From contig VMGC01000003.1 in NCBI GenBank assembly GCA_007376385.1, positions 1 to 64,000 of the forward strand: a stretch of 64,000 nt of DNA. The letters are read 5' to 3'. The position numbers and the translations under genes were made by a program. The first letter of the stretch is position 1, and the number at the start of each line of letters is the position of its first letter. Positions 6,336-62,270 of the stretch are shown here, piece after piece. Under the pieces are notes generated by a model. It had not been told where the DNA came from, searched no databases, and worked only from the letters and a program-made list of their open reading frames with translations. Source of the DNA: Parcubacteria group bacterium Gr01-1014_8. Its GTDB lineage: Bacteria; Patescibacteriota; Minisyncoccia; Phycocordibacterales; UBA2100.

Positions 6336-6445
6336 CAAATAAAGGGTATTCATACCGCGGGGTATTCGACCCTATGTTGGCTCCTCGGTTCGGAAATGAA
6401 AGTTAATACTTTCTCGCTTCGCTCGCAACGCTCGCCAATAAAGAT
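6336..6445 (-). repeat. intergenic repeat family copy E (minus orientation), about 85 percent identical to copy A
   Basis: The reverse complement reads tttattggcgagcgttgcgagcgaagcga...tttcatttccgaaccgaggagccaacatagggtcgaatacc, matching 24289-24370. Confidence 0.6.
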
Positions 6446-6561
6446 CAGGTGGGGGCCAGAGCTTTTGAGTCCGCGAGCGAGTGAACGCTGCTTTCCGCAA
6501 GATTAGCCCCCCGCTTCCGCAACGATAATACTCTCGTACCTTATAACATCAAGCTCCGCCG

Positions 6562-7758
6562 TTACTGTTTCTTTCCTCCACCAACTTTTTTCAAAATATC
6601 TGACGTAAAACTGAATGTCATCTTTTTCTTGCCCTCGAACCTCTCCTCTCCTAATCTCATGAGCTCGAGTACGAGTTCCATGCTTGAAAGACCTGTTTTT
6701 TTCCAGTTGTGATGATACAGGCTCCCTGGCAGAGTATTCACTTCATTCACGTATACTTTTTTCGAGTCTGCGTGAACAAGAAAGTCCACACGCGCGATAC
6801 CTGCGAGATCAAGTGCCCTATATACCCGAACCCCTAGGTCTTTGATTTCCGCCGTAAGTTCGTTGCTTATCTTTGCAGGAATTTCACTGTATTCAGCATT
6901 TACTCCTCCCCCGCCGCCTTTTTTCCCCCCGGAAAGATATTTGTCGCTAAAGTCGAAAAATTCAGTCTTGTTCAATGGTCTTTCGCAGTGCGCGGTTCGA
7001 ATTTCGTCATTTCCCATGATGGGCAGTGTGATTTCGATGAGCGGCTCGACGCTTTCTTCAACGAGTATCTTATTGTCATAGTGCAGAGCAACTTCAATCG
7101 CATTTTCAAGTTCCGATCCACTTTTAACTTTTGCCATACCTATCGAGGAGCCGAGATGAACCGGCTTAACAAAAAGCGGCCATTTTAAGTTCTTGATGGA
7201 TGTTAAGAGCGCGTCTTTATTCTTCGCCCATTCAGGTTTTGTAAACCACACGTACGGAACGACCGGCATGCCTTCAGCGGCAATTACCTGTTTCGTAAGA
7301 ACTTTGTCCATCGCAACTGCCGAGCCGAAAATATCACAACCGACAAACGGTACATTCGCCATGCGGAGAAGTCCCATCAAGGAGCCGTCTTCTCCATATG
7401 TGCCGTGCATTGAGGGAAATGCAACATCTATCTTCACCGTCTTTTTAAGAAACCCCGGCCACACAAGTGAAAATCCATTTTCAAATGAAAGCTGCACTTG
7501 TTTCTGTTTTTTAAGATGAGCTTCGTAGTCTGGGTCCTTGAAGAACGTGAGGTTATTCATCGACTTTTCCGAATACCATGCGCCTTCTTTCGTAATGTAC
7601 ACTGGCCACACGTCAAATTGCCCGCTTGCAAGCAACGATTCGATGATGGGAATATGTGCAGTTATCGTCGAAACATCATGTTCCGCGCTGCGTCCTCCAA
7701 AAATAACCGCTATAGACTTCACTTCTTGATTATATGTCACACGTACTGGTCCGGCCAA
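6562..7758 (-). CDS. ddl: D-alanine--D-alanine ligase
   Basis: ATP-grasp fold, N-terminal VIFGGRSAEHDVS motif. Lies downstream of murF as in dcw clusters. Carries a Gly-rich insertion. Confidence 0.9.
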   Translation of the reverse strand: MAGPVRVTYNQEVKSIAVIFGGRSAEHDVSTITAHIPIIESLLASGQFDVWPVYITKEGAWYSEKSMNNLTFFKDPDYEAHLKKQKQVQLSFENGFSLVWPGFLKKTVKIDVAFPSMHGTYGEDGSLMGLLRMANVPFVGCDIFGSAVAMDKVLTKQVIAAEGMPVVPYVWFTKPEWAKNKDALLTSIKNLKWPLFVKPVHLGSSIGMAKVKSGSELENAIEVALHYDNKILVEESVEPLIEITLPIMGNDEIRTAHCERPLNKTEFFDFSDKYLSGGKKGGGGGVNAEYSEIPAKISNELTAEIKDLGVRVYRALDLAGIARVDFLVHADSKKVYVNEVNTLPGSLYHHNWKKTGLSSMELVLELMRLGEERFEGKKKMTFSFTSDILKKVGGGKKQ

Positions 7759-9137
7759 TCATTTTGCAAGAGGACAACGTCCCCTTTTACTGTCATGTGA
7801 GGAAGCGCGATGTATGCCGCAAGTCCGTCGTCAAACCATGTCATTTCTCCCGTAAATCCTGCTTCTCTCAAACCCTTCTCAATGTACAGAGTTACGGAAT
7901 TTTTTATCAATACGATCTTTTCGATGCCGGCTCTCGCAAGCTGTCTTCCTATCTCCTTGTGAACTTCTTCCGCTCGAGAACCCATTTCAACGAGGCCGGG
8001 CGTGACATACAAACGTCGGCCAGGCAGAGATGCCAGAAACTCTATAACAGCCTTCACCCCGTCTGGACTTCCGTTGTAGCTATCGTCAAGCGTCGTGACG
8101 CCATCCAAGACCTTCGGTTCAAGACGATGAGGAAATGCGGACGTTTTCGCGATGCCTGTCTCTATGTGCGAAGGAGCGAGGCCGATACTCGTCGCAATGT
8201 CTACCGCAACGGCAAGCGGACCTATCTGATGAAGTCCGAGCAGTTTTGAACGTACATGTATTGCTACACTCCCGTTCGCGAGCATGCACGATGTACCTTC
8301 AAGTCTGGTCTTCGCATCTGAAACTTTCCAGTTCCCAACACCCTCCCTGCTGTACAGAGTATGCTCCTTTAATGCTCTTCCTTGCGAAATATCATTTTCT
8401 GCGTTGACATATACGAATTTGTCTTGGAGATATTCTGCCAGCTCAAAAATTGTATCCGCCGTGTTTTCTAACGTGCCAAATTTCTCTAAATGCGCCTCGT
8501 TGACGCCGGTGATGATGCCAATAGACGGTCTCACAAATCTGCATAATTTCTTAATATCCCCACGATAATATTCTCCTAGTTCGAAGACCAGAACATCTTC
8601 GTCGCCTTTTAGAGACTTTACAAATCCCGCTATCCCCAGCGGCGTGTTGTAGCTCCCGGGAGGCGCCGCAACTTTTTTCCCTTCACTAAGGACCGTTTTT
8701 AAGATCTCTCGCATTGATGTTTTGCCGTAGCTGCCTGCGATGGCTATTTTGAGAGCCTTGTGACGTGAAAGTCTTTGTTTTGCCCTCCCAATAAGCAGCA
8801 ATTCTATTGGCAATTGGATCGCTCGAAGAGCAAGAACAACAAGGATGAGGCCGTATGCGAGAAGGAACGGCCACACCAGGAATGCAATACCAACTACAAG
8901 CGGCTTTCCTGTCGAAAATGCGAGTGCTAGCCAGAGCACGACTAGGCTCCACGCAAGTACATACAGCAGGATTGCTTTAGGAGTCCACACTAATTTCTTA
9001 CGGTGTTCAACAAATCGAAAATCCTCTACCCGGTGCAGCCACTTCACATAGTCGCGGATATTGTATTCGCTTGCCTGCAACATATAGATCAGCGAGCGAA
9101 CGGAACTCGGCAAATATCGTGAAAGCCAAGGCATCAT
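7737..9137 (-). CDS. murF: MurF-like Mur ligase with an N-terminal two-helix membrane domain
   Basis: IAIAGSYGKTS P-loop and LDDSYNGSPDGVKAV (MurF DDSYNANP motif). The first 115 aa or so are two hydrophobic helices in place of the canonical MurF N-domain. Confidence 0.8.
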   Translation of the reverse strand: MMPWLSRYLPSSVRSLIYMLQASEYNIRDYVKWLHRVEDFRFVEHRKKLVWTPKAILLYVLAWSLVVLWLALAFSTGKPLVVGIAFLVWPFLLAYGLILVVLALRAIQLPIELLLIGRAKQRLSRHKALKIAIAGSYGKTSMREILKTVLSEGKKVAAPPGSYNTPLGIAGFVKSLKGDEDVLVFELGEYYRGDIKKLCRFVRPSIGIITGVNEAHLEKFGTLENTADTIFELAEYLQDKFVYVNAENDISQGRALKEHTLYSREGVGNWKVSDAKTRLEGTSCMLANGSVAIHVRSKLLGLHQIGPLAVAVDIATSIGLAPSHIETGIAKTSAFPHRLEPKVLDGVTTLDDSYNGSPDGVKAVIEFLASLPGRRLYVTPGLVEMGSRAEEVHKEIGRQLARAGIEKIVLIKNSVTLYIEKGLREAGFTGEMTWFDDGLAAYIALPHMTVKGDVVLLQNDWPDQYV

Positions 9138-24239: not shown

Positions 24240-24288
24240 TGCAGAATAGTACCGTGTTGGCGTCTCAATGCAAAAGAGATACAGAGAC

Positions 24289-24405
24289 GTTTATTGACGA
24301 GCGTTGCGAGTGAAGCGAAAATGTACTCATTTTCATTTCCGAGCCGAGGAGTCAACACAGGGTCGAATACCCTTTATCTGGCATTGCCGTCGAAAACGGC
24401 AATGT
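24289..24405 (+). repeat. intergenic repeat family copy A, with a downstream 9 bp hairpin
   Basis: tttattgacgagcgttgcgagtgaagcgaaaatg...cattttcatttccgagccgaggagtcaacacagggtcgaataccc, then CATTGCCGTcgaaaACGGCAATG. Confidence 0.6.
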
Positions 24406-25171: not shown

Positions 25172-27340
25172 TTGTGCGTCAGCATAGTCTCAACGGCAAT
25201 GGTTTTTTTCGACCCAAGCGGAGTCAGAAAGATAGTATTTGGGATAACGGTTTTTGTCATTCTCGTACTTCTTAGTGCAACACTCTTTGGCAGCTCACAA
25301 TATTTGAAGAATGCACGCATCTTTGCAGAAACGGCATATGCTCCGGTCAATTGGAGCGAACCCCAATTTGAAAAAACACTGGCGCTTACGTTCGACGACG
25401 GCCCTAAGCCCATATACACAGAGGAAATTGTGTCAGTTTTGAAAGAAAATGATGTTCCGGCAACCTTTTTTCTTGTTGGGGAGCAGATGATACGCCATCC
25501 CACGATAACTCGCTCGATCGTCTCGAACGGCTTTGATGTCGGCAATCACTCTCTGACACACTCGCGAAACATCCATTCGAGCTCTGAACGCATACATCGC
25601 GAAATAGTTGCGACCGATCGTATCTTGAGCGCTATTACCGGCCACTCAAGCATATTCTACCGGCCGCCTTATTTGTTGGATCAGGAATTTGGAAGTATTG
25701 ATGGGATGAGCATTGACAGCGACGTCATTAGAACGATCGAGGAGGTAGGGCCAATTGTGGTCGGTGCGGATGCAGGCGGCGAAGATTGGGAAACAGCAAT
25801 ACGGGCAGATGCGGACATTATTTATGAGCAGGTTGCCGCAGATGCGAGGGACGGACATCATGTCATCTTGTTGCACGATGCGGCGGGAGCGGGAGCAACT
25901 GCCGATGCGCTGAGAGAACTCATCCCTGCATTGAAAGCTGAAGGATACAGATTCGTCCCGCTCTCCTTCTATTTCGGTCTCACCCGGGAACAGGCCATGC
26001 CGGAAGTTGGAATTGGCGTCATACTATCAGAAGCAGTTCTCACCCTTCTCGTTTTTACGGAAGTCAGCGGCGGTGCACTGCTATACATATTAGTTGTTTC
26101 AATGGTTGTTATTGCAGTCGCTCGCATCTGGTTCATCATTTTGGTCCGCCGTATCATTGTTCCGCTTGTTCGAACGCCTAGGTTTCGCGGTATTCTTCCT
26201 TCTGTCTCGGTCATAATTCCAGCACATAACGAGTCCGCGAACATTGAGGCGACCATTCATTCCGTCATGTCGGGAAGTGTAACGCCGGAGGAAGTAATCG
26301 TTGTCGATGATGCCTCGAGCGATAATACGGCGAAACTCGTCAGAGAACTTCAAGTGAAATACGATCCGCGTTTGAGATTGCTGCAGAAGGAGCGCGGCGG
26401 CTCGAAAGCCGCCGCGCTGAATGCTGGTCTTCCCGAAGCGGCCGGAGATGTTCTTGTCTGTATCGACGCTGATACAACTGTGAGCCGGCACGCTCTTAGG
26501 AGACTCCTGTATCATTTTCATGATACAAAAGTCGGCGCGGTCGCAGGCAAAGTGTACCCTGCGTCACTGCGTTCTTTCTTTGAGAAACTGCAATATCTTG
26601 AATACGTGCAAGCGCAAAATTTGGATAAAGAAGTATTTTCGGTCGTGAACGCAGTCGGCATCGTACCCGGTGCCATCGGAGCTTGGAGAAAAACCGCAGT
26701 CGTGAACGCAGGCGGCTACTCCCTCGACACTGTCGTTGAAGATCAAGACCTTTCACTCGCGCTTCTTCTCAGAGGCTGGAATATCGTGTATGAACCGGAA
26801 GCCCTCGGATACACGGAAACTCCTACCAGCGCCCAGACGTTCTTCAAACAGCGATTCCGCTGGGTTCATGGAACGATGCAATGTTTTCGCAAATACGAGG
26901 CGTGGTTTGCTTCCCCGTTCGCTCCCCGGATGGGTTTTATCGTCCTGCCGAATCTACTCTTGTTCAACCTCATCATTCCGCTCGCCGCACCTCTTGTTGA
27001 TATTGCGTTCTTCGCGAGCGTCTTTGGTATATTCAACGTCCCGCTTGTAGCGACAATATTCATTTTCTTTATTCTTTTTGATCTTCTCTATGCCTACGAA
27101 GGCCTGCGGCTTGAAGAAAAACCGACGTATTCACTCATTCCACTTATTCCTATTCAGCGCTGGGTATACCGATACATTGTCGCCGCGGCAATGTTCAAAA
27201 GCGTAGTCGCTGCACTCGCCGGTACATTAGTGGTGTGGGCAACTCCCTCACGCCGCGGCACAGCGTCGCGTGAATGGGCACTTGTGCAAGCGAAAGCAGA
27301 ACGACTTCAAACTCAAATATCAAAGATCTCTACCGACTAA
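25172..27340 (+). CDS. fused polysaccharide deacetylase (NodB/CE4) - family 2 glycosyltransferase (processive synthase-like) membrane protein
   Basis: Signal anchor, TFDDGP and NodB His motifs, TM segments, then GT2 motifs DDASSDNT, DADT and QRFRW. Confidence 0.8.
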   Translation: MCVSIVSTAMVFFDPSGVRKIVFGITVFVILVLLSATLFGSSQYLKNARIFAETAYAPVNWSEPQFEKTLALTFDDGPKPIYTEEIVSVLKENDVPATFFLVGEQMIRHPTITRSIVSNGFDVGNHSLTHSRNIHSSSERIHREIVATDRILSAITGHSSIFYRPPYLLDQEFGSIDGMSIDSDVIRTIEEVGPIVVGADAGGEDWETAIRADADIIYEQVAADARDGHHVILLHDAAGAGATADALRELIPALKAEGYRFVPLSFYFGLTREQAMPEVGIGVILSEAVLTLLVFTEVSGGALLYILVVSMVVIAVARIWFIILVRRIIVPLVRTPRFRGILPSVSVIIPAHNESANIEATIHSVMSGSVTPEEVIVVDDASSDNTAKLVRELQVKYDPRLRLLQKERGGSKAAALNAGLPEAAGDVLVCIDADTTVSRHALRRLLYHFHDTKVGAVAGKVYPASLRSFFEKLQYLEYVQAQNLDKEVFSVVNAVGIVPGAIGAWRKTAVVNAGGYSLDTVVEDQDLSLALLLRGWNIVYEPEALGYTETPTSAQTFFKQRFRWVHGTMQCFRKYEAWFASPFAPRMGFIVLPNLLLFNLIIPLAAPLVDIAFFASVFGIFNVPLVATIFIFFILFDLLYAYEGLRLEEKPTYSLIPLIPIQRWVYRYIVAAAMFKSVVAALAGTLVVWATPSRRGTASREWALVQAKAERLQTQISKISTD

Positions 27341-28940: not shown

Positions 28941-29046
28941 AAGGTTTCAACCCCCAGGGCTTGCCGCGGGATTTTGAACCTGTGCTGTCTACGTCGCTCG
29001 GAAATGCGAAACCTGCGCTTTCGCATTTCGCGTGCTACCCTCGACA
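28938..29046 (-). repeat. intergenic repeat family copy B (diverged, minus orientation) between convergent genes
   Basis: Contains GAAATGCGAAAcctgcgcTTTCGCATTTC (29001-29029), catttccgagc and acaggttcaaaatccc. Its 3' end gaaaggtttcaaccccc is shared with 4411. Confidence 0.5.
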
Positions 29047-29054
29047 GATAAAAA

Positions 29055-30371
29055 CTACTGAAGCTTCTGGTTTGCGATATTCATTTCTTCCAGTTCGATC
29101 TGCACTTCTGCCGGGACCTCCTGGGATGTGTCCTTTTTTAACAATCGGAACGATCCGCCTACGATCGCAACAATTGTCGCGATACCGCCGATTGCAAGAC
29201 CCCAGCGCGCACCAACATATTCGCCGATCCAACCCACAAGCGGCCCTCCAAGCAACGTGCTGCCGGTGATCGCCATTGTCCAGAGCGCCATTACTCGTCC
29301 GCGCATCTCAGGCACGCTTTCCAGTTGAACCATCGTGTTTGCAGAAGAAGACATGTTGATCGAGAACAAGCCGACCAAGATCATGCCACCTATCGCAGAA
29401 ACTAACGTTGGAGCGAGAGCAGTGCCAATGATGGAGATACCGAATAAAAGCCCGAAAATTACAAAGAGATGGGGCGCGACAGTATGTCTGCTTGCAGCAT
29501 ATAGGCCGCCAATTACTGACCCGATGCCAAAAGCCGACATAAGAGCCGCATACGCGCTCACATCGGAAAGAAACGTTTGCTCTGCAAATATCGGGAGACT
29601 TATCTGAAACTCGTACGCGAATGTACCAATAACTGCGATCATTATCAAGATGCCCCGAATACGAGGCATCGATTGTACGTAGCGAAACCCCGCCCGCAAT
29701 TGCCCCGATCTTGTGCCTATGGGTGGCGAGCGATGTAATTCTTTTTCTTTCATCAAAAAGAGCATCCATATGACAGCCACGTAGGTGAATGCATTGAATA
29801 GAAAACAAAATGCGATGCCAGCGGTCGCGATAAGAATTCCTCCGATTGACGGCCCTACTGCTCGCGCAAGATTATTGACCGTTGAATTAAGACTCACAGC
29901 ATTATTCAGGTGTTTCGCATCTACCATTTCAGATACAAACGTCTGACGTGTGGGATTATCAAAGATCCGGATGAGACCCCATACGAAAGCAAACACGAAA
30001 AGCATCCACGTACGCATAGTGCCCGCATACACAAGAACACTCATGCAAAGGGCAAGGATGCCGAGCGCCGCTTGGGTAAGCAGCAATATCTTCCGCTTGT
30101 CGAAGCGATCCGCCACAACACCTCCCCACACACCAAACACTAAGAGCGGGAAAAACTGCGTCGCAACGATCAAACCGAGCTTGCTACCGGACCCAGTAAC
30201 TTGGAGCGCAAGCCATCCAAGAGCGATCAATTGCATCCAGGTACCTGAAAGAGATACCGCCTGACCGATAAAATATAGACGATAATTACGAATAGCGAGC
30301 GACGCAAAAATCCGCCCGAAAAATACCCCGATTTGTCGCATCGTGCCATGATAGCGCACATTCAATCTCAC
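29055..30371 (-). CDS. MFS transporter
   Basis: 12 TM helices, MFS-type loop motif. Confidence 0.8.
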   Translation of the reverse strand: MRLNVRYHGTMRQIGVFFGRIFASLAIRNYRLYFIGQAVSLSGTWMQLIALGWLALQVTGSGSKLGLIVATQFFPLLVFGVWGGVVADRFDKRKILLLTQAALGILALCMSVLVYAGTMRTWMLFVFAFVWGLIRIFDNPTRQTFVSEMVDAKHLNNAVSLNSTVNNLARAVGPSIGGILIATAGIAFCFLFNAFTYVAVIWMLFLMKEKELHRSPPIGTRSGQLRAGFRYVQSMPRIRGILIMIAVIGTFAYEFQISLPIFAEQTFLSDVSAYAALMSAFGIGSVIGGLYAASRHTVAPHLFVIFGLLFGISIIGTALAPTLVSAIGGMILVGLFSINMSSSANTMVQLESVPEMRGRVMALWTMAITGSTLLGGPLVGWIGEYVGARWGLAIGGIATIVAIVGGSFRLLKKDTSQEVPAEVQIELEEMNIANQKLQ

Positions 30372-37353: not shown

Positions 37354-38238
37354 CTAGCGGGCATCCAAGGACTTTTCTGCATCAATGAAGGATTGTATGT
37401 CCCCTCCGAGCACTTTTTCAACGTCCCTGCGTTCATGCTCCGTTCTGTGGTCCTTCACCAATTGATATGGATGGAGCGTGTATGAACGGATCTGACTTCC
37501 CCATTCTATCTTTGTCGAAGTGCCTGCCGAAAGTCCTCGCGCCTCCTTATCTTGTGCTTCTTGCCGCATTTTAAACAGTTTCCCTCGAAGCATTTCAAGC
37601 GCTTTTTCTCGATTTTGGAGTTGACTCCTCTCGCTCGTGACATGCACGGAGATTCCAGTCGGTTTATGTGTCATTCGCACCGCCGTGTCCCGCTTGTTCA
37701 CATTTTGTCCGCCTGGACCACCTGAACGTGCAACGGTAATTTCAAGCTCTTGCTCAGGAATGTGCGATTCGCCGACATCGGGTAATTTCGGCAATATCTC
37801 AACTAACGAAAAAGAAGTTTGCCTCTTACCTGCAGAATTAAACGGGGACATGCGGACGAGTCTATGAACGCCTGCCTCTCTTTTTAAAGCTCCGAAAACA
37901 CCGGAGCCCGCTATCTCAAACGAGACGCTTCGGTATCCTCCCATTGTATTTTGATTTGAATCAATAAGTCCTGCCTGCCATCCTTTAGATGCCGCATACT
38001 TTCCATACATTTCAAAAAGAATGCGCGAGAAATCCTCCGCATCGTCTCCCCCAGCTCCAGAAACTATCGACACTATCGCATCCCCTTTGTCGTAGCCTTC
38101 ACTCCCTGCAAGCTGTTGTTTCAAATGTTGATACTCCTTCAATATTTCCTGCGCTTTATCTTTATTGCTCCAAAAGTCCGGCGCTCTCATCGCTGTCTCA
38201 ATATCCCCAATTCTTTTTTCGATAAGTTCTTTTTGCAT
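37354..38238 (-). CDS. prfB: peptide chain release factor 2 (short form, no programmed frameshift)
   Basis: SPF tripeptide ([15 protein letters not shown]) and GGQ motif ([11 protein letters not shown]). Single continuous 294 aa frame. Confidence 0.85.
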
Positions 38239-38239
38239 A

Positions 38240-38315
38240 TGGAGCCACCTCCCGGGCTTGAACCGGGGACCTACCCCTTACGAAGGGGTTGCTCTACCAA
38301 CTGAGCTAAGGTGGC
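38240..38315 (-). tRNA. tRNA-Thr(CGU)
   Basis: Cloverleaf GCCACCT...AGGTGGC, anticodon loop TTCGTAA, T-arm CCCGG-TTCAAGC-CCGGG, encoded CCA. Abuts the prfB start codon. Confidence 0.85.
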
Positions 38316-38372
38316 GCAGGCCAATCCTACGGCAATATAGCCACATTTTCAACGCAAACACTTTATACACCG

Positions 38373-38708
38373 TTGACACCGTATCCGATTGTACTCGGTT
38401 ATACTTACTATATGACTGATCGTAGTCGTATTAGACCTCTCGAACAAAAACATGCATATAAGTTTGGTGATCTGGTTCGCTTAAGCTCCACAATTCCAGG
38501 ATCAGTGCTACCACTTGTAACAGATCGCTTCCAGCCTGGAAAACCATACCGCGTCGTAGCAGTAAAAGAGCCGATGATCTACCTTATGCACCCAAACATC
38601 GAATTGAACCGTGCTATCAATTTTAATCCTGATACTGATGTAGATAAGCCACGGTACGGATTTATCAGAAACATCGGCATCAACCTTATTGAGCCGATGC
38701 CCAACTGA
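38373..38708 (+). CDS. hypothetical protein (111 aa) flanked by a tRNA-Thr and a partial duplicate of it
   Basis: ORF only, no recognisable motif. Only plus-strand ORF in a minus-strand block. Confidence 0.35.
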   Translation: MTPYPIVLGYTYYMTDRSRIRPLEQKHAYKFGDLVRLSSTIPGSVLPLVTDRFQPGKPYRVVAVKEPMIYLMHPNIELNRAINFNPDTDVDKPRYGFIRNIGINLIEPMPN

Positions 38709-38782
38709 CAAAGCGGAGCACCTCCACCCTCAGTCACAGGATGAGTTTTAATACACCGTCTTTTCTTTCTCATGAGCCACCA

Positions 38783-38850
38783 TCCCATAAGGACCGCCCG
38801 CTCAACTGAGCTAAGGCGGCAACTTCGTTATCCTACGGCAGATTGGACTA
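38783..38850 (-). pseudogene. tRNA-Thr-derived fragment (internally deleted duplicate including upstream flank)
   Basis: caactgagctaaggcggc matches the tRNA-Thr 5' half (1 mismatch over 18 nt) and the downstream flank atcctacggca matches exactly. The reverse complement keeps ends GCCGCCTTAGCTCAGTTG...GGTGGCTCA but lacks the anticodon arm. Confidence 0.5.
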
Positions 38851-38890
38851 ATTTCCAATTTTCGGAACAGAGACTTTCAATTGGTCTTAT

Positions 38891-39838
38891 CTATTCAGAA
38901 AGAACCTTCATGACACGGTCGACCACCGTGGCCCTTGTACCAAGAGCATAGTGTCCTACGCCTTCGATTACGAAATACGGGACTTTGTTTTCTTTCAACG
39001 CAGGCCCTAGGAGATCGCTCGGATATAAATGATCCTTGTCCCCAATCCCGGCAGAGACGCGAACTCCCTTTTCGATAAGCGCCCTTACCATCGGCGCGAC
39101 GTAAGTTACTGCGACCTCGTCAATTTGTGCTTCAGCACCGAGATCTCCACGCATGGTCTGTTGCATTCCGAACATCTCGTAATCTATCTCGGCGCTCGGC
39201 AAAAAAGACTTGTCGTGCTCCCCGCCTGGCATCATCCCCAACTGCCGTAATTTACTCTTGAGAAGGACCCCGAAATTAATCGATGCCGTCTTAAGACGAA
39301 GTGGGTCGTCGCCCTCAATCATTCCAGCAGGAGCATAGAGAAAGATCTTTCGAAAGAGCTCCGGTCGGAGCGTGGCGGCCAGCACTGCAGACACGGCACC
39401 CGCAGAATGGGCTATGACATCTATGGGTTGTGGTATGGCCAGGTTTTCCAACATCTCTATCGAACCAATGGCTCGTTTCACTTGAGCATCAGAAAAGACG
39501 CACTTTTCTTTTTTCCACTTCGCTAATTCCTTTTTCGCATTTTGTAATTTTTCTTCTCCTTTGAGCTTATTCTTCGATCCGAACTGGTCAATTTCTACAT
39601 TTTCTGCAGCAAAAAAAGATTTTCCCTTATTGTAAAGGCTTTCTAGAAATCCCTTATAGGTGGTGTATGACAATCCTAGGCCGGGCAAGAAATATACTGT
39701 GGGATCGCTGGAATTTTCTGCTTGCATTAAAGTGTATCTGATTTCTTGATCGCCCACTCGAACACTATGTGTGCACTTGTGAAAGAGATCTCTGAAAGGA
39801 TCTCCTAATGATTGCGGTTGTTCAAGTAGTGTGTGCAT
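38891..39838 (-). CDS. alpha/beta hydrolase family protein
   Basis: IAHSAGAVSA nucleophile elbow, 315 aa. Confidence 0.5.
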   Translation of the reverse strand: MHTLLEQPQSLGDPFRDLFHKCTHSVRVGDQEIRYTLMQAENSSDPTVYFLPGLGLSYTTYKGFLESLYNKGKSFFAAENVEIDQFGSKNKLKGEEKLQNAKKELAKWKKEKCVFSDAQVKRAIGSIEMLENLAIPQPIDVIAHSAGAVSAVLAATLRPELFRKIFLYAPAGMIEGDDPLRLKTASINFGVLLKSKLRQLGMMPGGEHDKSFLPSAEIDYEMFGMQQTMRGDLGAEAQIDEVAVTYVAPMVRALIEKGVRVSAGIGDKDHLYPSDLLGPALKENKVPYFVIEGVGHYALGTRATVVDRVMKVLSE

Positions 39839-39995: not shown

Positions 39996-40280
39996 TGGAG
40001 CCGATGTCCGGGATTGAACCGGAGACCTCGTTCTTCGCTTACACCTCTCCTTTAGATATTCGAGAGGGCTAGACTGTATCTTCCCCCCACTTTTTTTGAA
40101 TTCTTAAAGTGGGGGACCCTTGTCAGTCGTTCGGGCGAATCAAGCAAAATGCTCGTCGCCACGGTCTGAACCTTTCGAGGCCTTTAACCGTAATTCGGGA
40201 TTCATTCAGACGTTACCGCCCGAATGGGCAGGGGTCTGCGACCCACCAAGAACGTGCTCTACCAACTGAGCTACATCGGC
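39996..40280 (-). tRNA. tRNA-Thr(GGU) interrupted by a group I intron between positions 36 and 37
   Basis: Exon 1 40245-40280 (GCCGATGTAGCTCAGTTGGTAGAGCACGTTCTTGGT), exon 2 39996-40035 (AAGAACGAGGTCTCCGGTTCAATCCCGGACATCGGCTCCA). Spliced product folds as a canonical 76 nt tRNA. Confidence 0.65.
40036..40244 (-). ncRNA. group I self-splicing intron (about 209 nt, no ORF) in the tRNA-Thr(GGU) anticodon loop
   Basis: 5' exon ends in U; intron ends in G (AAGCG). S-like element GAAGAUACAGUCUAG, R-like UUCAGACCGUGG able to form P7. P1 possible as GGU|GGG with CCUGCC giving U-G at the splice site. Long hairpin CCCCCACUUU...AAAGUGGGGG. Confidence 0.6.
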
Positions 40281-40666: not shown

Positions 40667-41908
40667 ATGGCTGTCGTAAATCCGTTCACGTCATATATTG
40701 AACGCCTCGCACGCGCTGCGCGCGCCTTGGGACTCTCGGAAGTCGAAAAAAAACGATTGTCAGAGCCAAACAACATTGTAGATACTCAGATAGAACTTAC
40801 GCGTGATAATGGAACAGTAGAAAGACTCCGCACCTACCGCGTACAATTCAATAATGCACGCGGGCCGTATAAAGGCGGGATCCGCTTTCACAAGGCGGCG
40901 GACTTAGACGAAGTAAAGGCGCTGGCTGCGGCCATGGCAATAAAGTGTGCGGTAGTTGATATTCCGATGGGAGGCGCTAAAGGAGGTGTCCAATTTGACC
41001 CAAAGCAATATTCAGAAGCGGAAATAGAGCGAGTCGCACGAGCATTCATCCGAGCTATGGGTGATGCAATCGGCGCCGACAAAGATATTCCCGCGCCAGA
41101 CGTATACACCAACAGCAACATAATGGGCATCATGCTGGATGAGTTTCAAAAAATGCACGGCCGAAATGAACCCGCCATGATAACGGGAAAGCCGCAGGGA
41201 CTCGGCGGAATAGTCGGTCGTGACACAGCTACAGCACAAGGCGGTGTGTATGTGCTCGATTACTTTGTGAGTGCTCTTGGTTTCAAGAAAAAAGGTCTGC
41301 GCGTCGCAATACAAGGGTTTGGGAATGCGGGGGCTACCGCTGCAAAGATCTTGAGCGGAGATGGACACAGTATCGTCGGCATTTCCGATAGCAGCGGAGC
41401 TCTCCTATTCGAAACTGGGCTGGACATAGACAAACTCCTTCTTGAAAAAAACAAAAGCGGCGAGTTAAAAGATACGCGTGCAAGAATCGCAACAAATCAG
41501 GAGCTATTAGAAACGGACTGTGATGTTTTGATACCTGCCGCACTCGACAATCAACTGACCGTTGAAAATGCGCCTCGGGTAAAAGCAAAAATAATACTGG
41601 AATTGGCCAACGGGCCAACTACTCCGGAGGCGGACGTGATTTTCGGGCAACGAGACATTACTGTCATCCCCGATGTACTAACTAACGCGGGGGGAGTTAC
41701 CGTATCCTATTTTGAATGGCTGCAAAATCGGGAAGGAAGCATCTGGTCGGAAGAAAAAGTACGCGAGCAATTGAAAGAAATAATGACAAAAGCATCCGGC
41801 GTTCTATGGAAAAAATCAAAGGAACTGAATGTCCCCCTCCGAGATGCGGCGTTCCTTCTTGGCGTTGAACGAATTGTGAGTGCTATGAGGACCCGGAGGG
41901 CTGTCTAA
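40667..41908 (+). CDS. gdhA: glutamate dehydrogenase (Glu/Leu/Phe/Val dehydrogenase family)
   Basis: Catalytic K motif IPMGGAKGGV, Rossmann GFGNAG. Confidence 0.9.
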   Translation: MAVVNPFTSYIERLARAARALGLSEVEKKRLSEPNNIVDTQIELTRDNGTVERLRTYRVQFNNARGPYKGGIRFHKAADLDEVKALAAAMAIKCAVVDIPMGGAKGGVQFDPKQYSEAEIERVARAFIRAMGDAIGADKDIPAPDVYTNSNIMGIMLDEFQKMHGRNEPAMITGKPQGLGGIVGRDTATAQGGVYVLDYFVSALGFKKKGLRVAIQGFGNAGATAAKILSGDGHSIVGISDSSGALLFETGLDIDKLLLEKNKSGELKDTRARIATNQELLETDCDVLIPAALDNQLTVENAPRVKAKIILELANGPTTPEADVIFGQRDITVIPDVLTNAGGVTVSYFEWLQNREGSIWSEEKVREQLKEIMTKASGVLWKKSKELNVPLRDAAFLLGVERIVSAMRTRRAV

Positions 41909-41909
41909 C

Positions 41910-41927
41910 GCGCGAGTGAAGGGACTT
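41910..41927. repeat. 18 nt exact duplicate of the tRNA-Asp 3' end (T-stem/acceptor), 140 nt from the gene
   Basis: gcgcgagtgaagggactt is identical at 41910-41927 and 42067-42084. Starts 2 nt after the gdhA stop. Confidence 0.5.
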
Positions 41928-42030
41928 TTTCTCCCCCGCTTTGCATTTGCAAAGCTCCTCCGAAACCGGCCGCCCTCGCTCGAACCAGTGGCGCTCGGGT
42001 CGGCTTCAAGTCCCGTTTTGCATAGCAAAA

Positions 42031-42059
42031 CAAAAGAGTCCCATAGTGGGACTCTTTTG
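42031..42059 (-). terminator. intrinsic terminator downstream of tRNA-Asp
   Basis: 12 bp perfect stem CAAAAGAGTCCCA/TGGGACTCTTTTG, followed on the minus strand by TTTTGCTATGCAAAA. Confidence 0.55.
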
Positions 42060-42067
42060 TCTCGCTG

Positions 42068-42141
42068 CGCGAGTGAAGGGACTTGAACCCTCGACCTTTC
42101 CCGTGACAGGGGAACGCTCTAACCAGCTGAGCTACACCCGC
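42068..42141 (-). tRNA. tRNA-Asp(GUC)
   Basis: Acceptor GCGGGTG/CACTCGC, anticodon loop CTGTCAC, T-arm GAGGG-TTCAAGT-CCCTT. Confidence 0.85.
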
Positions 42142-42586: not shown

Positions 42587-42630
42587 GTTTCGCCAGAATA
42601 GCATTTTTGACAGGCGACTCAACTATTTTG

Positions 42631-42782
42631 TTGCGGGGGCGGGCTTGGTCAGGAATAATTCGCTTGCCGACGCAAGCGAATTTTCACGACCCTGGCTCGC
42701 AGTCTCGCGCGCGCTCGACATCGCTCCGCCTTGCAAGTCCCGACGAGAAGTGCGAAGGCACTTCTCTCCCCCGCACAACCCG
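42631..42782 (-). ncRNA. about 150 nt structured element with tRNA-fMet-like acceptor termini but no T-arm (degenerate tRNA paralog or tRNA-like ncRNA)
   Basis: 3' end ttgttgcgggggcggg is identical to the 3' end and flank of the adjacent tRNA-fMet. 5' end UGCGGGGG pairs with the 3' end. Contains a 9 bp hairpin GAGAAGUGC/GCACUUCUC, an 11 bp hairpin AAUUCGCUUGC/GCAAGCGAAUU and a possible anticodon-like stem UCGGG/CCUGA. Confidence 0.35.
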
Positions 42783-42790
42783 ATCACAGC

Positions 42791-42817
42791 AAAAAATCCG
42801 CGCGAGGCGGATTTTTT
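42791..42817. terminator. bidirectional intrinsic terminator hairpin between tRNA-fMet and the tRNA-like element
   Basis: AAAAAATCCGCgcgaGCGGATTTTTT, perfect 11 bp stem flanked by A and T runs. Confidence 0.5.
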
Positions 42818-42827
42818 GCTGTACTTG

Positions 42828-42899
42828 TTGCGGGGGCGGGACTTGCACCCGCGACCTTCAGGTTATGAGCCTGACGAGCTACTACTGCTCCACCCCGCT
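42828..42899 (-). tRNA. initiator-like tRNA-Met(CAU) with non-canonical D and T loops
   Basis: AGCGGGGUGGAGC...CUCAUAA...CCCCGCAA resembles E. coli tRNA-fMet. A1:A72 are unpaired. D-loop AGTAGTA lacks G18G19 and T-loop is TGCAAGT instead of TTCRANY. Confidence 0.6.
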
Positions 42900-42906
42900 A
42901 CAGATG

Positions 42907-42942
42907 ATGATACCGCGATTGAGACTCCGAACGCAAGCGAAT
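42907..42942 (-). promoter_or_regulatory. putative sigma70-type promoter for tRNA-fMet
   Basis: Minus strand reads TTGCGT, 18 nt spacer, TATCAT, 7 nt, then tRNA +1. Confidence 0.3.
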
Positions 42943-43042
42943 TTTATTTGCGACGTAGAGCGAGTGAAATGCAAAAGAGCACTTTTGCATTTCCGAGCCG
43001 AGGAGCAAACACAGGTTCAATACCTCGCAGCTTTGCTGCGAG
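42942..43042 (+). repeat. intergenic repeat family copy C with downstream hairpin
   Basis: gcgagtgaaatgcaaaagagcacttttgcatttccgagccgaggagcaaacacaggttcaatacc, then CTCGCAGCtttgGCTGCGAG. Confidence 0.6.
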
Positions 43043-61774: not shown

Positions 61775-61992
61775 ATTGAAAATTGTAGCTCCGACTGTGC
61801 TCTTCGGGTACTCGGGTCAGTCCGATAAAAAAGTCTTCGGGCGGTGAGATATTAGTCTTTGCTCGAACCCACTTCGCACGCGCGGAGCGCGTGGTGGCTT
61901 GAAACTGAAGCGTACGCCCCGATTCCGCTGACTCTCGCCTCTGCCGCGCCGCTTTGCGGCGCGGCTCTGTCCGAACTCGAAGTTTCTATCTG

Positions 61993-62081
61993 CGGAGAGG
62001 GAGGGATTCGAACCCTCGAGACAGTTTTACCCGCCTAACACGTTAGCACCGTGCCGCCTTCGACCACTCGGCCACCTCTCC
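61993..62081 (-). tRNA. tRNA-Ser(GCU)
   Basis: Acceptor GGAGAGG/CCTCTCC, 3 bp D-stem, anticodon loop GTGCTAA, long variable arm, T-arm GAGGG-TTCGAAT-CCCTC. Confidence 0.85.
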
Positions 62082-62270
62082 CTCGATTCGCTTACGCGAA
62101 TCATATCGGAAGGAGGCCTCGCCCTTCGGGCTCCCTAAAGCCTGCTCGGCACTTGCCTCGCATTGGCTTTTTCCGCATTCGCGGAATCGGATGAAATAGA
62201 CGCCAGGTCATATTTCATGGCCACCTCTCCAACCGCACTACCCTATCATAGAACAATAGGGTTTTCTAAA

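Follow-up and report, generated by a model that had tools for sequence, protein, structure and literature searches.

Partial tRNA gene copies as boundary repeats of small gene-end insertions in a Candidatus Kaiserbacteria genome

The window analysed here is a stretch of 64,000 nucleotides (nt) from Parcubacteria group bacterium Gr01-1014_8 (assembly GCA_007376385.1, contig VMGC01000003.1, positions 1 to 64,000). It is assigned to Candidatus Kaiserbacteria, within the Patescibacteria or candidate phyla radiation (CPR), on the basis of the genes that surround its tRNA region (pyrG, ftsX, ftsE, prfB, gdh and gatA) and of their nearest relatives. The closest species-level relatives exhibit FtsX identities of 67-68%. 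Across 80 related loci (denoted L and a number) the gene order tRNA-fMet, tRNA-Met, tRNA-Asp, ..., tRNA-Thr(GGU), tRNA-Thr(CGU), prfB, ftsE, ftsX, ..., tRNA-Gln is kept, with inter-tRNA spacers of 19 nt up to several kb. A first-pass annotation made from the sequence alone had drawn attention to partial copies of four tRNA genes of the window, those for Thr(CGU), Asp, fMet and Ser, each lying close to its parent gene. Small insertions of DNA at tRNA gene ends have these copies as their boundary repeats. Two or three of the four cases are compact hairpin elements with arms that copy the end of the neighbouring gene, here called gene-end elements, and apparently undescribed; the literature searched yielded no publication on them, the sole related find being a paper on tRNA introns.

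All four copies were recovered, with minor corrections to the first-pass annotation. The 3' 18 nt of tRNA-Asp recur exactly (41910-41927 = 42067-42084, 18/18) with 139 nt between the copies, and the 3' 16 nt of tRNA-fMet likewise (42628-42643 = 42825-42840, 16/16) with 181 nt between them. The copy of nt 1-12 of tRNA-Ser (62070-62081) exists, 137 nt upstream and with 12/12 identities, but lies at 62219-62230 and not at 62217-62228. For tRNA-Thr(CGU) the recurrence of the 5' 18 nt (38298-38315 against 38803-38820, 17/18) and of an 11-nt flank (38324-38334 = 38830-38840, exact) was upheld, but the copy proved longer than had been recognised. Comparison with shuffled sequence, which had been proposed as a check, was carried out on the window and gave an expectation of 0.00 extra matches for each of the four patterns (for Ser, two matches against 0.00).

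A family-wide control was assembled from 202 tRNAs of the 80 related loci with complete 300-nt flanks, other tRNAs being masked and exact matches of at least 11 nt being counted. The tRNA 3' end was copied downstream in direct orientation in 16 instances and inverted in 21, and the 5' end was copied upstream in direct orientation in nine. The five control geometries (a 3' end copied upstream in either orientation, a 5' end copied downstream in either orientation, and a 5' end copied upstream in inverted form) gave 0/202 each. This polar pattern, together with the empty control geometries, indicates that the phenomenon is real, polar and typical of the lineage.

The direct 3' copies lie 110-190 nt downstream of the tRNA, start in the T loop (nt 58-60) and stop 1-3 nt beyond the discriminator base. 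The order on the 3' side is intact tRNA, spacer, inverted left arm, structured core and right arm. The spacer after tRNA-Asp and tRNA-fMet is a strong terminator-like hairpin. The left arm is the reverse complement of the tRNA T loop, the 3' strand of the T stem and the 3' strand of the acceptor stem, and the right arm repeats tRNA nt ~58-76 and a further 1-3 nt in direct orientation. Since its terminal segment exists in two copies, the tRNA gene stays intact. Coordinates are given in Table 1.

Table 1. Features of the four loci in the window, and nuclease-gene inserts in related loci
Feature	Position	Strand	Basis or remarks
Functional tRNA-Thr(CGU)	38240..38315	-	ARAGORN; Rfam tRNA 67.1 bits
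tRNA-Thr(CGU) leader and promoter-like site	38316..38352	-	TTGAAA 38352-38347, 17-nt spacer, TAGGAT 38329-38324; consensus scan
ORF98, orphan gene	38412..38708	+	TTG-extended open reading frame (ORF) from 38373
Decayed upstream copy of promoter, tRNA-Thr(CGU) and prfB start	38757..38858	-	Alignment A3, repeats D2 and D4
Promoter-like TTGGAA-17-TAGGAT in decayed copy	38858-38830	-	
48-nt pseudo-tRNA in decayed copy	38820-38773	-	
prfB-start-like ATGAGAAAGAAAAG in decayed copy	38773-38757	-	
tRNA-Asp(GUC)	42067..42141	-	ARAGORN, Rfam; 3' 18 nt (42067-42084) are repeat copy A
Terminator-like 20-bp hairpin directly after tRNA-Asp	42024..42066	-	Inverted repeat I1, 90% complementary; fold
Asp gene-end element	41910..42023	-	Repeats, fold
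Asp left arm	42002-42014	-	Inverted copy of T loop and T stem; 13 nt, 92% complementary
Asp body	41928-42001	-	Between arms
Asp right arm B	41910-41927	-	Exact copy of tRNA 3' 18 nt; abuts gdh stop codon
Initiator-type tRNA-Met(CAU)	42827..42899	-	ARAGORN, Rfam; repeat copy A 42825-42840
Terminator-like hairpin after tRNA-fMet	42786..42822	-	16 bp perfect (repeat finder), 17 pairs (fold); A and T runs flank
Type-2 gene-end element, fMet	42628..42778	-	nhmmer, fold, arms, family covariation
fMet left arm a	42758-42775	-	Inverted copy of acceptor 3' strand
fMet left arm b	42732-42742	-	Inverted copy of T stem/loop; internal hairpin between arms a and b
fMet core	42644-42731	-	Type 2
fMet right arm B	42628-42643	-	Direct copy of tRNA 3' end
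tRNA-Ser(GCU)	61992..62081	-	ARAGORN, Rfam; nt 1-12 (62070-62081) are repeat copy A'
5'-side insertion at tRNA-Ser	62082..62230	-	137-nt insert 62082-62218 and copy of nt 1-12 at 62219-62230
GIY-YIG inserts (PF01541)	L022 17078-17456; L039 13849-14183; L063 15280-15667; L066 1144-1538		Flanked by a partial tRNA copy and the full tRNA

The fMet element represents a family, designated type 2, that is spread through Kaiserbacteria. It matched the type-2 model at an nhmmer E value of 6e-34, aligned over its full length with 17 other type-2 elements and has an orthologue in L043 (E = 7e-35). It folds into a multibranched structure that the arms close, with -103.7 kcal/mol (z = -7.2) for 42625-42826, terminator hairpin included. 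The type-2 core follows the pattern GCGGAGCGATGT-hairpin-ACCGCGAGC...GGGTCG-hairpin, and its 26 hits lie after Met, fMet, Gln, Asp, Leu, Lys and Cys tRNAs, that is, at least seven tRNA species. When 18 type-2 elements were aligned, 38 of the 41 predicted helix pairs proved to carry compensatory changes. The Asp element is built in the same way around a different core, and its fold (z = -5.6 for 41907-42066, again including the terminator hairpin) is weaker than that of fMet. A further near-copy of the tRNA-Asp 3' end (16/18), none being expected from shuffles, is found at 26745-26762 within the ORF at 25172-27340.

A second core family, type 1, was recognised in related loci by the consensus GAARGGGGTCGGGRAAAC-loop-GTTTYCCCGTGGAGGAAGG-(optional hairpin)-GGGAAAACCGWGGGTTTCCCAG. 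Kaiserbacteria loci contain 26 copies, after the tRNAs for Asp, Gln, Thr(CGU) and Thr(GGU), and every copy with an annotated tRNA nearby lies downstream of that tRNA on the same strand. Metagenomes contributed at least 120 contigs. Directly upstream of 92 of 151 type-1 cores is a same-strand tRNA of almost any identity, from which the arms are made; counting all 93 tRNAs that immediately precede such a core, 92 share its orientation, with the 3' end toward the left arm. The left arm is an exact complement of the actual T loop; in the right arm, element sequence (TTCTTAT or TGAGAT) stands in place of the T-loop part. The stems scarcely vary, which makes counts of G-U against A-C pairs uninformative in this family. 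That the core encodes a short peptide was considered and rejected, the apparent start codon covarying within a stem. In L030 (11070-11480) a tandem arrangement of tRNA-Gln, a type-1 element, a 38-nt copy of tRNA-Gln nt 35-72 and a second type-1 element was observed. A set of AT-rich contigs (L097, L117, L122, L130, L137, L145, L147 and L149) carries the type-1 core behind a promoter-like AT-rich stretch and small hairpins; there the core had no adjacent tRNA or clear gene end and matched no Rfam family.

Most of the remaining type-1 cores are situated at the ends of protein genes, bringing the targets of this family to more than 25 tRNA species and at least six protein genes. At C-termini the last ~15 codons of rpmG and rpsI are involved. 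At N-termini, where the gene is on the opposite strand, it is the first codons of fusA, a typA-like GTPase, rnhA and a GT4 glycosyltransferase, the last being cut at its WGGAQ motif. The layout comprises the gene end, a spacer, an inverted copy of the inner part of that end, the core and a second copy of the gene end, which keeps the start or stop codon and is out of frame with the gene. In-frame read-through at the N-terminal sites was rejected, as the displaced start opens a short ORF in a different frame. Comparison of the inner and outer gene-end copies in 12 cases yielded 60 synonymous and 15 non-synonymous codon differences. Divergence of this synonymous type implies that both copies diverged as coding sequence, one of them in another lineage. 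Additionally, type-1 elements take their polarity from gene-end geometry, irrespective of which way the gene is transcribed, which argues for an event at the level of DNA.

Occupied and empty sites were found among relatives, as the first-pass annotation had suggested looking for. An exact 126-nt insertion follows tRNA-Thr(CGU) in L009, while in L017 the same prfB leader directly follows the tRNA. Occupied and empty pairs were available for tRNA-Asp (L056/L043, L004/L005 and L059/L078), and tRNA-fMet is element-free in L021, L029 and L065. Occupancy was 8-27% per tRNA species, counting the two modelled families or the bare repeat.

The Ser case is probably the mirror-image layout at a 5' end and a compact element by analogy; its insert folds with z = -3.8. 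In the nine control tRNAs with 5' copies, the first 11-21 nt recur 63-300 nt upstream, and the copies in L037, L041, L051, L063 and L064 are laid out as for Ser. A structured insert of ~105 nt is shared between the 5' copy and the gene in L041 and L051 (Thr-CGU) and L063 (Thr-GGU). GIY-YIG genes (PF01541) occupy the interval between the 5' copy and the tRNA in L039, L063 (Gln) and L066 (Thr-GGU), and that between tRNA-Gln and its 3' copy in L022. The L022 insert and type-2 elements are similar at their 3' ends.

The Thr case is a larger event that follows the same logic, the gene end being duplicated and DNA inserted between the copies, with no hairpin core and no clear inverted arm found there. 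The upstream copy retains the promoter-like site, tRNA nt 1-18, the last ~14 nt of the tRNA and sequence resembling the first codons of prfB; an internal deletion of ~28 nt has removed the anticodon arm and part of the T arm. It is collinear with its parent and the flanks and has lost the cloverleaf, as a tRNA pseudogene formed by local duplication would. Neither ARAGORN nor Rfam called it as a tRNA, and its fold was not significant (z = -1.7). Read from the sequence, it is nearer to Thr(CGU) than to Thr(GGU). In our reading the copy is a pseudogene that took in the entire 5' end of the tRNA-Thr/prfB unit. A -10 region comparable to that of tRNA-Thr(CGU) precedes the tRNA in L005 and L007. The start codon of prfB lies 1 nt past the CCA end of tRNA-Thr(CGU) (38236-38240); prfB itself is short (294 aa), starting at approximately residue 30 of Escherichia coli RF2, and has no visible Shine-Dalgarno sequence.

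ORF98 lies between the two Thr copies on the opposite strand. A search of 5.8 billion proteins returned only ORF98 itself, and no Pfam or PHROG match was obtained. Its codon score of 0.166 compares with 0.205 +/- 0.048 for native genes, every other frame being negative, which represents native-like usage. The AlphaFold2 model is all-beta with a mean predicted local distance difference test (pLDDT) score of 63.6, and a fold search with this low-confidence model gave no match at E <= 0.001. A free-standing homing endonuclease cassette was not supported as an identity for ORF98, since these searches detected no nuclease domain and GIY-YIG was confirmed in relatives only. Between the two tRNA-Thr genes stands an alpha/beta-hydrolase-like gene at 38891-39838 (-), probably inserted in this lineage alone; just one other contig was found to encode exactly the same product. 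Both ORF98 and the adjacent hydrolase gene are missing from 80 of the 80 related loci, which bears out the earlier suggestion of an insertion at Thr, in the form of duplication followed by decay around inserted DNA. In the closest relatives, L005 (4557-5045) and L007 (~7694-8149), an HNH-like ORF (HNH_3, below the Pfam cut-off) separates tRNA-Thr(GGU) from tRNA-Thr(CGU), and in the window the hydrolase gene and ORF98 stand at its position. The interval between the tRNA-Thr genes is an insertion hot spot.

Taken together, these data make it somewhat probable that the gene-end elements arise by DNA-level insertion at a conserved gene end, in which a replacement end is supplied, the host end is displaced and the choice of target resides in the arms. 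The mobile unit would consist of a replacement gene end, spacer, inverted arm and core. It would enter near the end of a conserved gene by recombination within a short stretch common to element and target, after which the element would supply the working end and the displaced end of the host would become the outer repeat. Target choice would thus sit in the arms, not in a sequence-specific integrase, and the mobilising enzyme would act in trans. A bolder and tentative extension, possible rather than probable, is that these are a new class of protein-less, retargetable insertion elements of Patescibacteria following a "home-and-rescue" principle, in which exchangeable arms around a conserved hairpin core might set the target by complementarity, a recoded gene end would be carried along and an enzyme provided in trans would read the core instead of the target.

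Several points weigh against insertion as proposed. Type 1, from which the protein-gene evidence comes, is not present in the window. The Asp core had no relative in the related loci and matched neither the type-1 nor the type-2 model even at E <= 10, and the Asp element may have decayed or be of a different nature; the Ser case is argued from a 12-nt repeat and by analogy. For the window itself no empty site came to light at strain level, and the organism's further contigs (two from ENA, the first a metagenome contig, and two from Logan) match it with full identity. Breaks of the Logan contigs within tRNAs were rejected as a sign of strain variation, given that these contigs equal the window and the breaks occur in several tRNAs. 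No recombinase domain was detected in the 15 window ORFs scanned, the remainder being judged housekeeping from inspected translations, and no mobilising enzyme was found, the sequence at hand being the window and the related loci. On the tRNA-sense strand of the type-2 alignment G-U pairs outnumber A-C pairs (~35 against ~18 in a tally), which allows a role at the level of RNA. Lastly, the terminator after the tRNA is orthologous at occupied and empty sites: the fMet hairpin has orthologues in L043 and at the element-free sites of L029 and L065, and hairpins like the Asp terminator follow tRNA-Asp at the empty sites of L005, L011 and L017. This also fits insertion, beyond a native terminator, of an element with both arms. 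The orthologous terminators are compatible with two forms of the inserted unit, gene end, terminator, left arm and core, or left arm, core and right arm; the first is favoured, because the outer protein-gene copies keep intact coding character.

A rather unlikely alternative is that the elements are genes for structured non-coding RNAs, transcribed with or after the tRNA. Their paired arms would copy the acceptor/T-stem minihelix and thereby let RNase P, RNase Z or the CCA-adding enzyme process and stabilise the RNA, the RNA being obliged to mimic or pair with the neighbouring tRNA. Compensatory changes that keep the structure, a core sequence strongly conserved across very divergent genomes, stems of variable length at fixed positions as in many structured RNAs and the co-orientation of nearly all upstream tRNAs with type-1 cores would all be accommodated, as would the modest G-U excess on the sense strand and the tRNA-like shape of type 2 (an acceptor-like stem, a hairpin at the place of the D arm and a T-stem-like helix). 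However, at fMet and Asp a strong terminator hairpin separates the tRNA from the element, and tRNA mimicry does not account for the same core at the 5' ends of opposite-strand genes with arms of coding sequence. Patchy presence with clean empty sites also speaks against an RNA gene, and the coding-type divergence of the protein-gene copies implies DNA transfer between lineages. Searches with Rfam 15 (gathering thresholds and E <= 10; the window and seven related loci) detected only tRNAs, plus FMN and LOOT outside the elements, with noise over the elements. Likewise, inspection by eye revealed no consensus of the hammerhead, twister, pistol or HDV-like (hepatitis delta virus) ribozymes, for which Rfam gave no match over the element.

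It is very unlikely that no mobile element is involved and that the copies reflect local tandem tRNA duplication and decay, as the first-pass annotation had offered as one explanation, or template-switching during replication at the terminator palindromes. The Thr copy is indeed a decaying duplicate, the tandem in L030 repeats a unit of half a tRNA plus an element, and a single long palindrome, with the terminator loop at its centre, takes in the tRNA end, the terminator and the left arm. The repeats at Asp, fMet and probably Ser bracket compact elements instead, and neither process explains one conserved core at dozens of unrelated targets in many genomes or the synonymous-type divergence between copies.

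Slightly less likely still is the other explanation first offered, that the repeats are the attL/attR (attachment site) scars of islands or prophages that were integrated by an integrase in tRNA 3' ends and from which nearly all DNA was later deleted. The stretch repeated here, T loop to 3' end, is reportedly where tRNA-targeting integrases usually cross over, and direct repeats of the tRNA 3' end do flank the inserted DNA. The synonymous differences between gene-end copies also recall the icd site of phage 21 and e14, where the copies differ in the same way. However, the Asp and fMet repeats enclose only 139 and 181 nt, with a conserved and covarying structure, and random deletion would not leave 110-190 nt with a conserved core at many independent sites. 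The inverted arm is left without explanation. No recombinase or integrase was detected within or beside the repeats among the 15 scanned ORFs, and there is no restriction to a few targets, one core family having more than 25. The occurrence of the type-1 core at protein-gene ends as well as tRNAs cannot be explained by one sequence-specific tRNA integrase. Among 2.9 million viral contigs two type-1 patterns had no matches, and a loose type-2 pattern had 10, none of which was confirmed by the model. Chance similarity of conserved tRNA segments to flanking DNA was tested and rejected for Asp, fMet and Thr and is a negligible prospect overall: the Ser match is only 12 nt, and by our own estimate, which ignores position, about three 12-mer matches of any tRNA to the whole window are expected, but shuffles gave 0.00 for each pattern, and position, strand and end agree with the family-wide pattern, the control geometries of which are empty.

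The gene-end elements share properties with several known systems. As in tRNA-targeting integrative elements (prophages, genomic islands and tycheposons), a segment of the tRNA from the T loop to the end is directly repeated, the second gene-end copy keeps the gene intact, and the ends of protein genes are used, with synonymous differences between copies. Unlike these, they extend over only ~110-200 nt without integrase or cargo, combine an inverted target copy with a structured core, include one core family with dozens of targets and also use 5' ends. In being small, non-coding, hairpin-forming, multi-copy and located just past gene ends they are similar to miniature inverted-repeat transposable elements (MITEs) and to repetitive extragenic palindromes of the REP and REPIN types (REPs). 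MITEs and REPs conserve terminal or palindromic sequence and have short target duplications of fixed length, whereas gene-end elements conserve the centre and their arms vary by site, copying 14-60 nt of the neighbouring gene. Identification as a MITE was rejected, given arms that differ at each site, no conserved terminal inverted repeats and repeats of 12-60 nt that are not of fixed length. The template and variable repeats of diversity-generating retroelements were likewise rejected, as by inspection the mismatches between copies are not at adenines of the downstream copy, and so was the fixed 14-15 bp duplication of casposons, the repeat length being variable.

Introns and nuclease ORFs similarly target the most conserved parts of essential genes, and the lineage carries both kinds, a predicted tRNA-Thr(GGU) intron in the window and GIY-YIG and HNH-like ORFs next to tRNAs of relatives; the GIY-YIG ORFs of relatives are bracketed by partial tRNA copies like those of the gene-end elements. 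Unlike introns, the elements of the window encode no nuclease and are too small for self-splicing, and the gene is spared by duplication of its end, not by splicing. In the folded single-strand sites of CTX-type phages and in integron attC sites, a hairpin stem reproduces the target duplex and is read by XerCD or IntI at fixed sequences. The hairpin stem of the gene-end element would resemble these in reproducing the sequence of its target duplex, but it differs for each target; no XerCD- or IntI-type recombinase was identified, and attC core sites were not searched for.

If insertion of this kind is true, very small CPR genomes carry abundant tiny elements at the ends of essential genes, undamaging and with the target written in their own arms. 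Besides splicing (introns and inteins) and integrase-borne copies of gene ends, they would give selfish DNA a third way into the most conserved sites of a genome, and they would suggest that an insertion activity guided by nucleic acid exists. Annotation of tRNAs and pseudogenes is misled by partial copies of tRNAs and gene ends, and the conserved cores are easy markers for a survey of gene-end elements.

Two further features of the region were noted. The tRNA-Thr(GGU) gene at 39996-40280 (-) is interrupted after nt 36 by a predicted 209-nt intron, the 5' exon occupying 40245-40280 and the 3' exon 39996-40035. Read from the sequence, the exons would rebuild a cloverleaf with anticodon GGU, a U precedes the 5' splice site and the intron has a terminal G. 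The intron scored only 15 bits against RF00028, and both ARAGORN and the Rfam tRNA model miss the gene. Divergent group I introns, likewise missed by RF00028, have been described in tRNA-Thr of Patescibacteria (Nakagawa et al. 2026, PMC13011429), and the predicted intron fits this group. A 5' fragment extending over the D arm lies upstream of tRNA-Thr(CGU) in L036, L044, L046, L047, L059, L068 and L079, which have no annotated tRNA-Thr(GGU); L036 alone was read fully.

The second feature is a dispersed intergenic repeat of ~100 nt with the consensus GGGTATTCGAACCTGTGTTGGCTCCTCGGCTCGGAAATG-hairpin-CATTTCACTCGC. It is without flanking gene-end duplication and has four copies in the window, at 6340-6460 (+), 24240-24385 (-), 28950-29070 (+) and 42900-43040 (-), and it occurs also in related loci.

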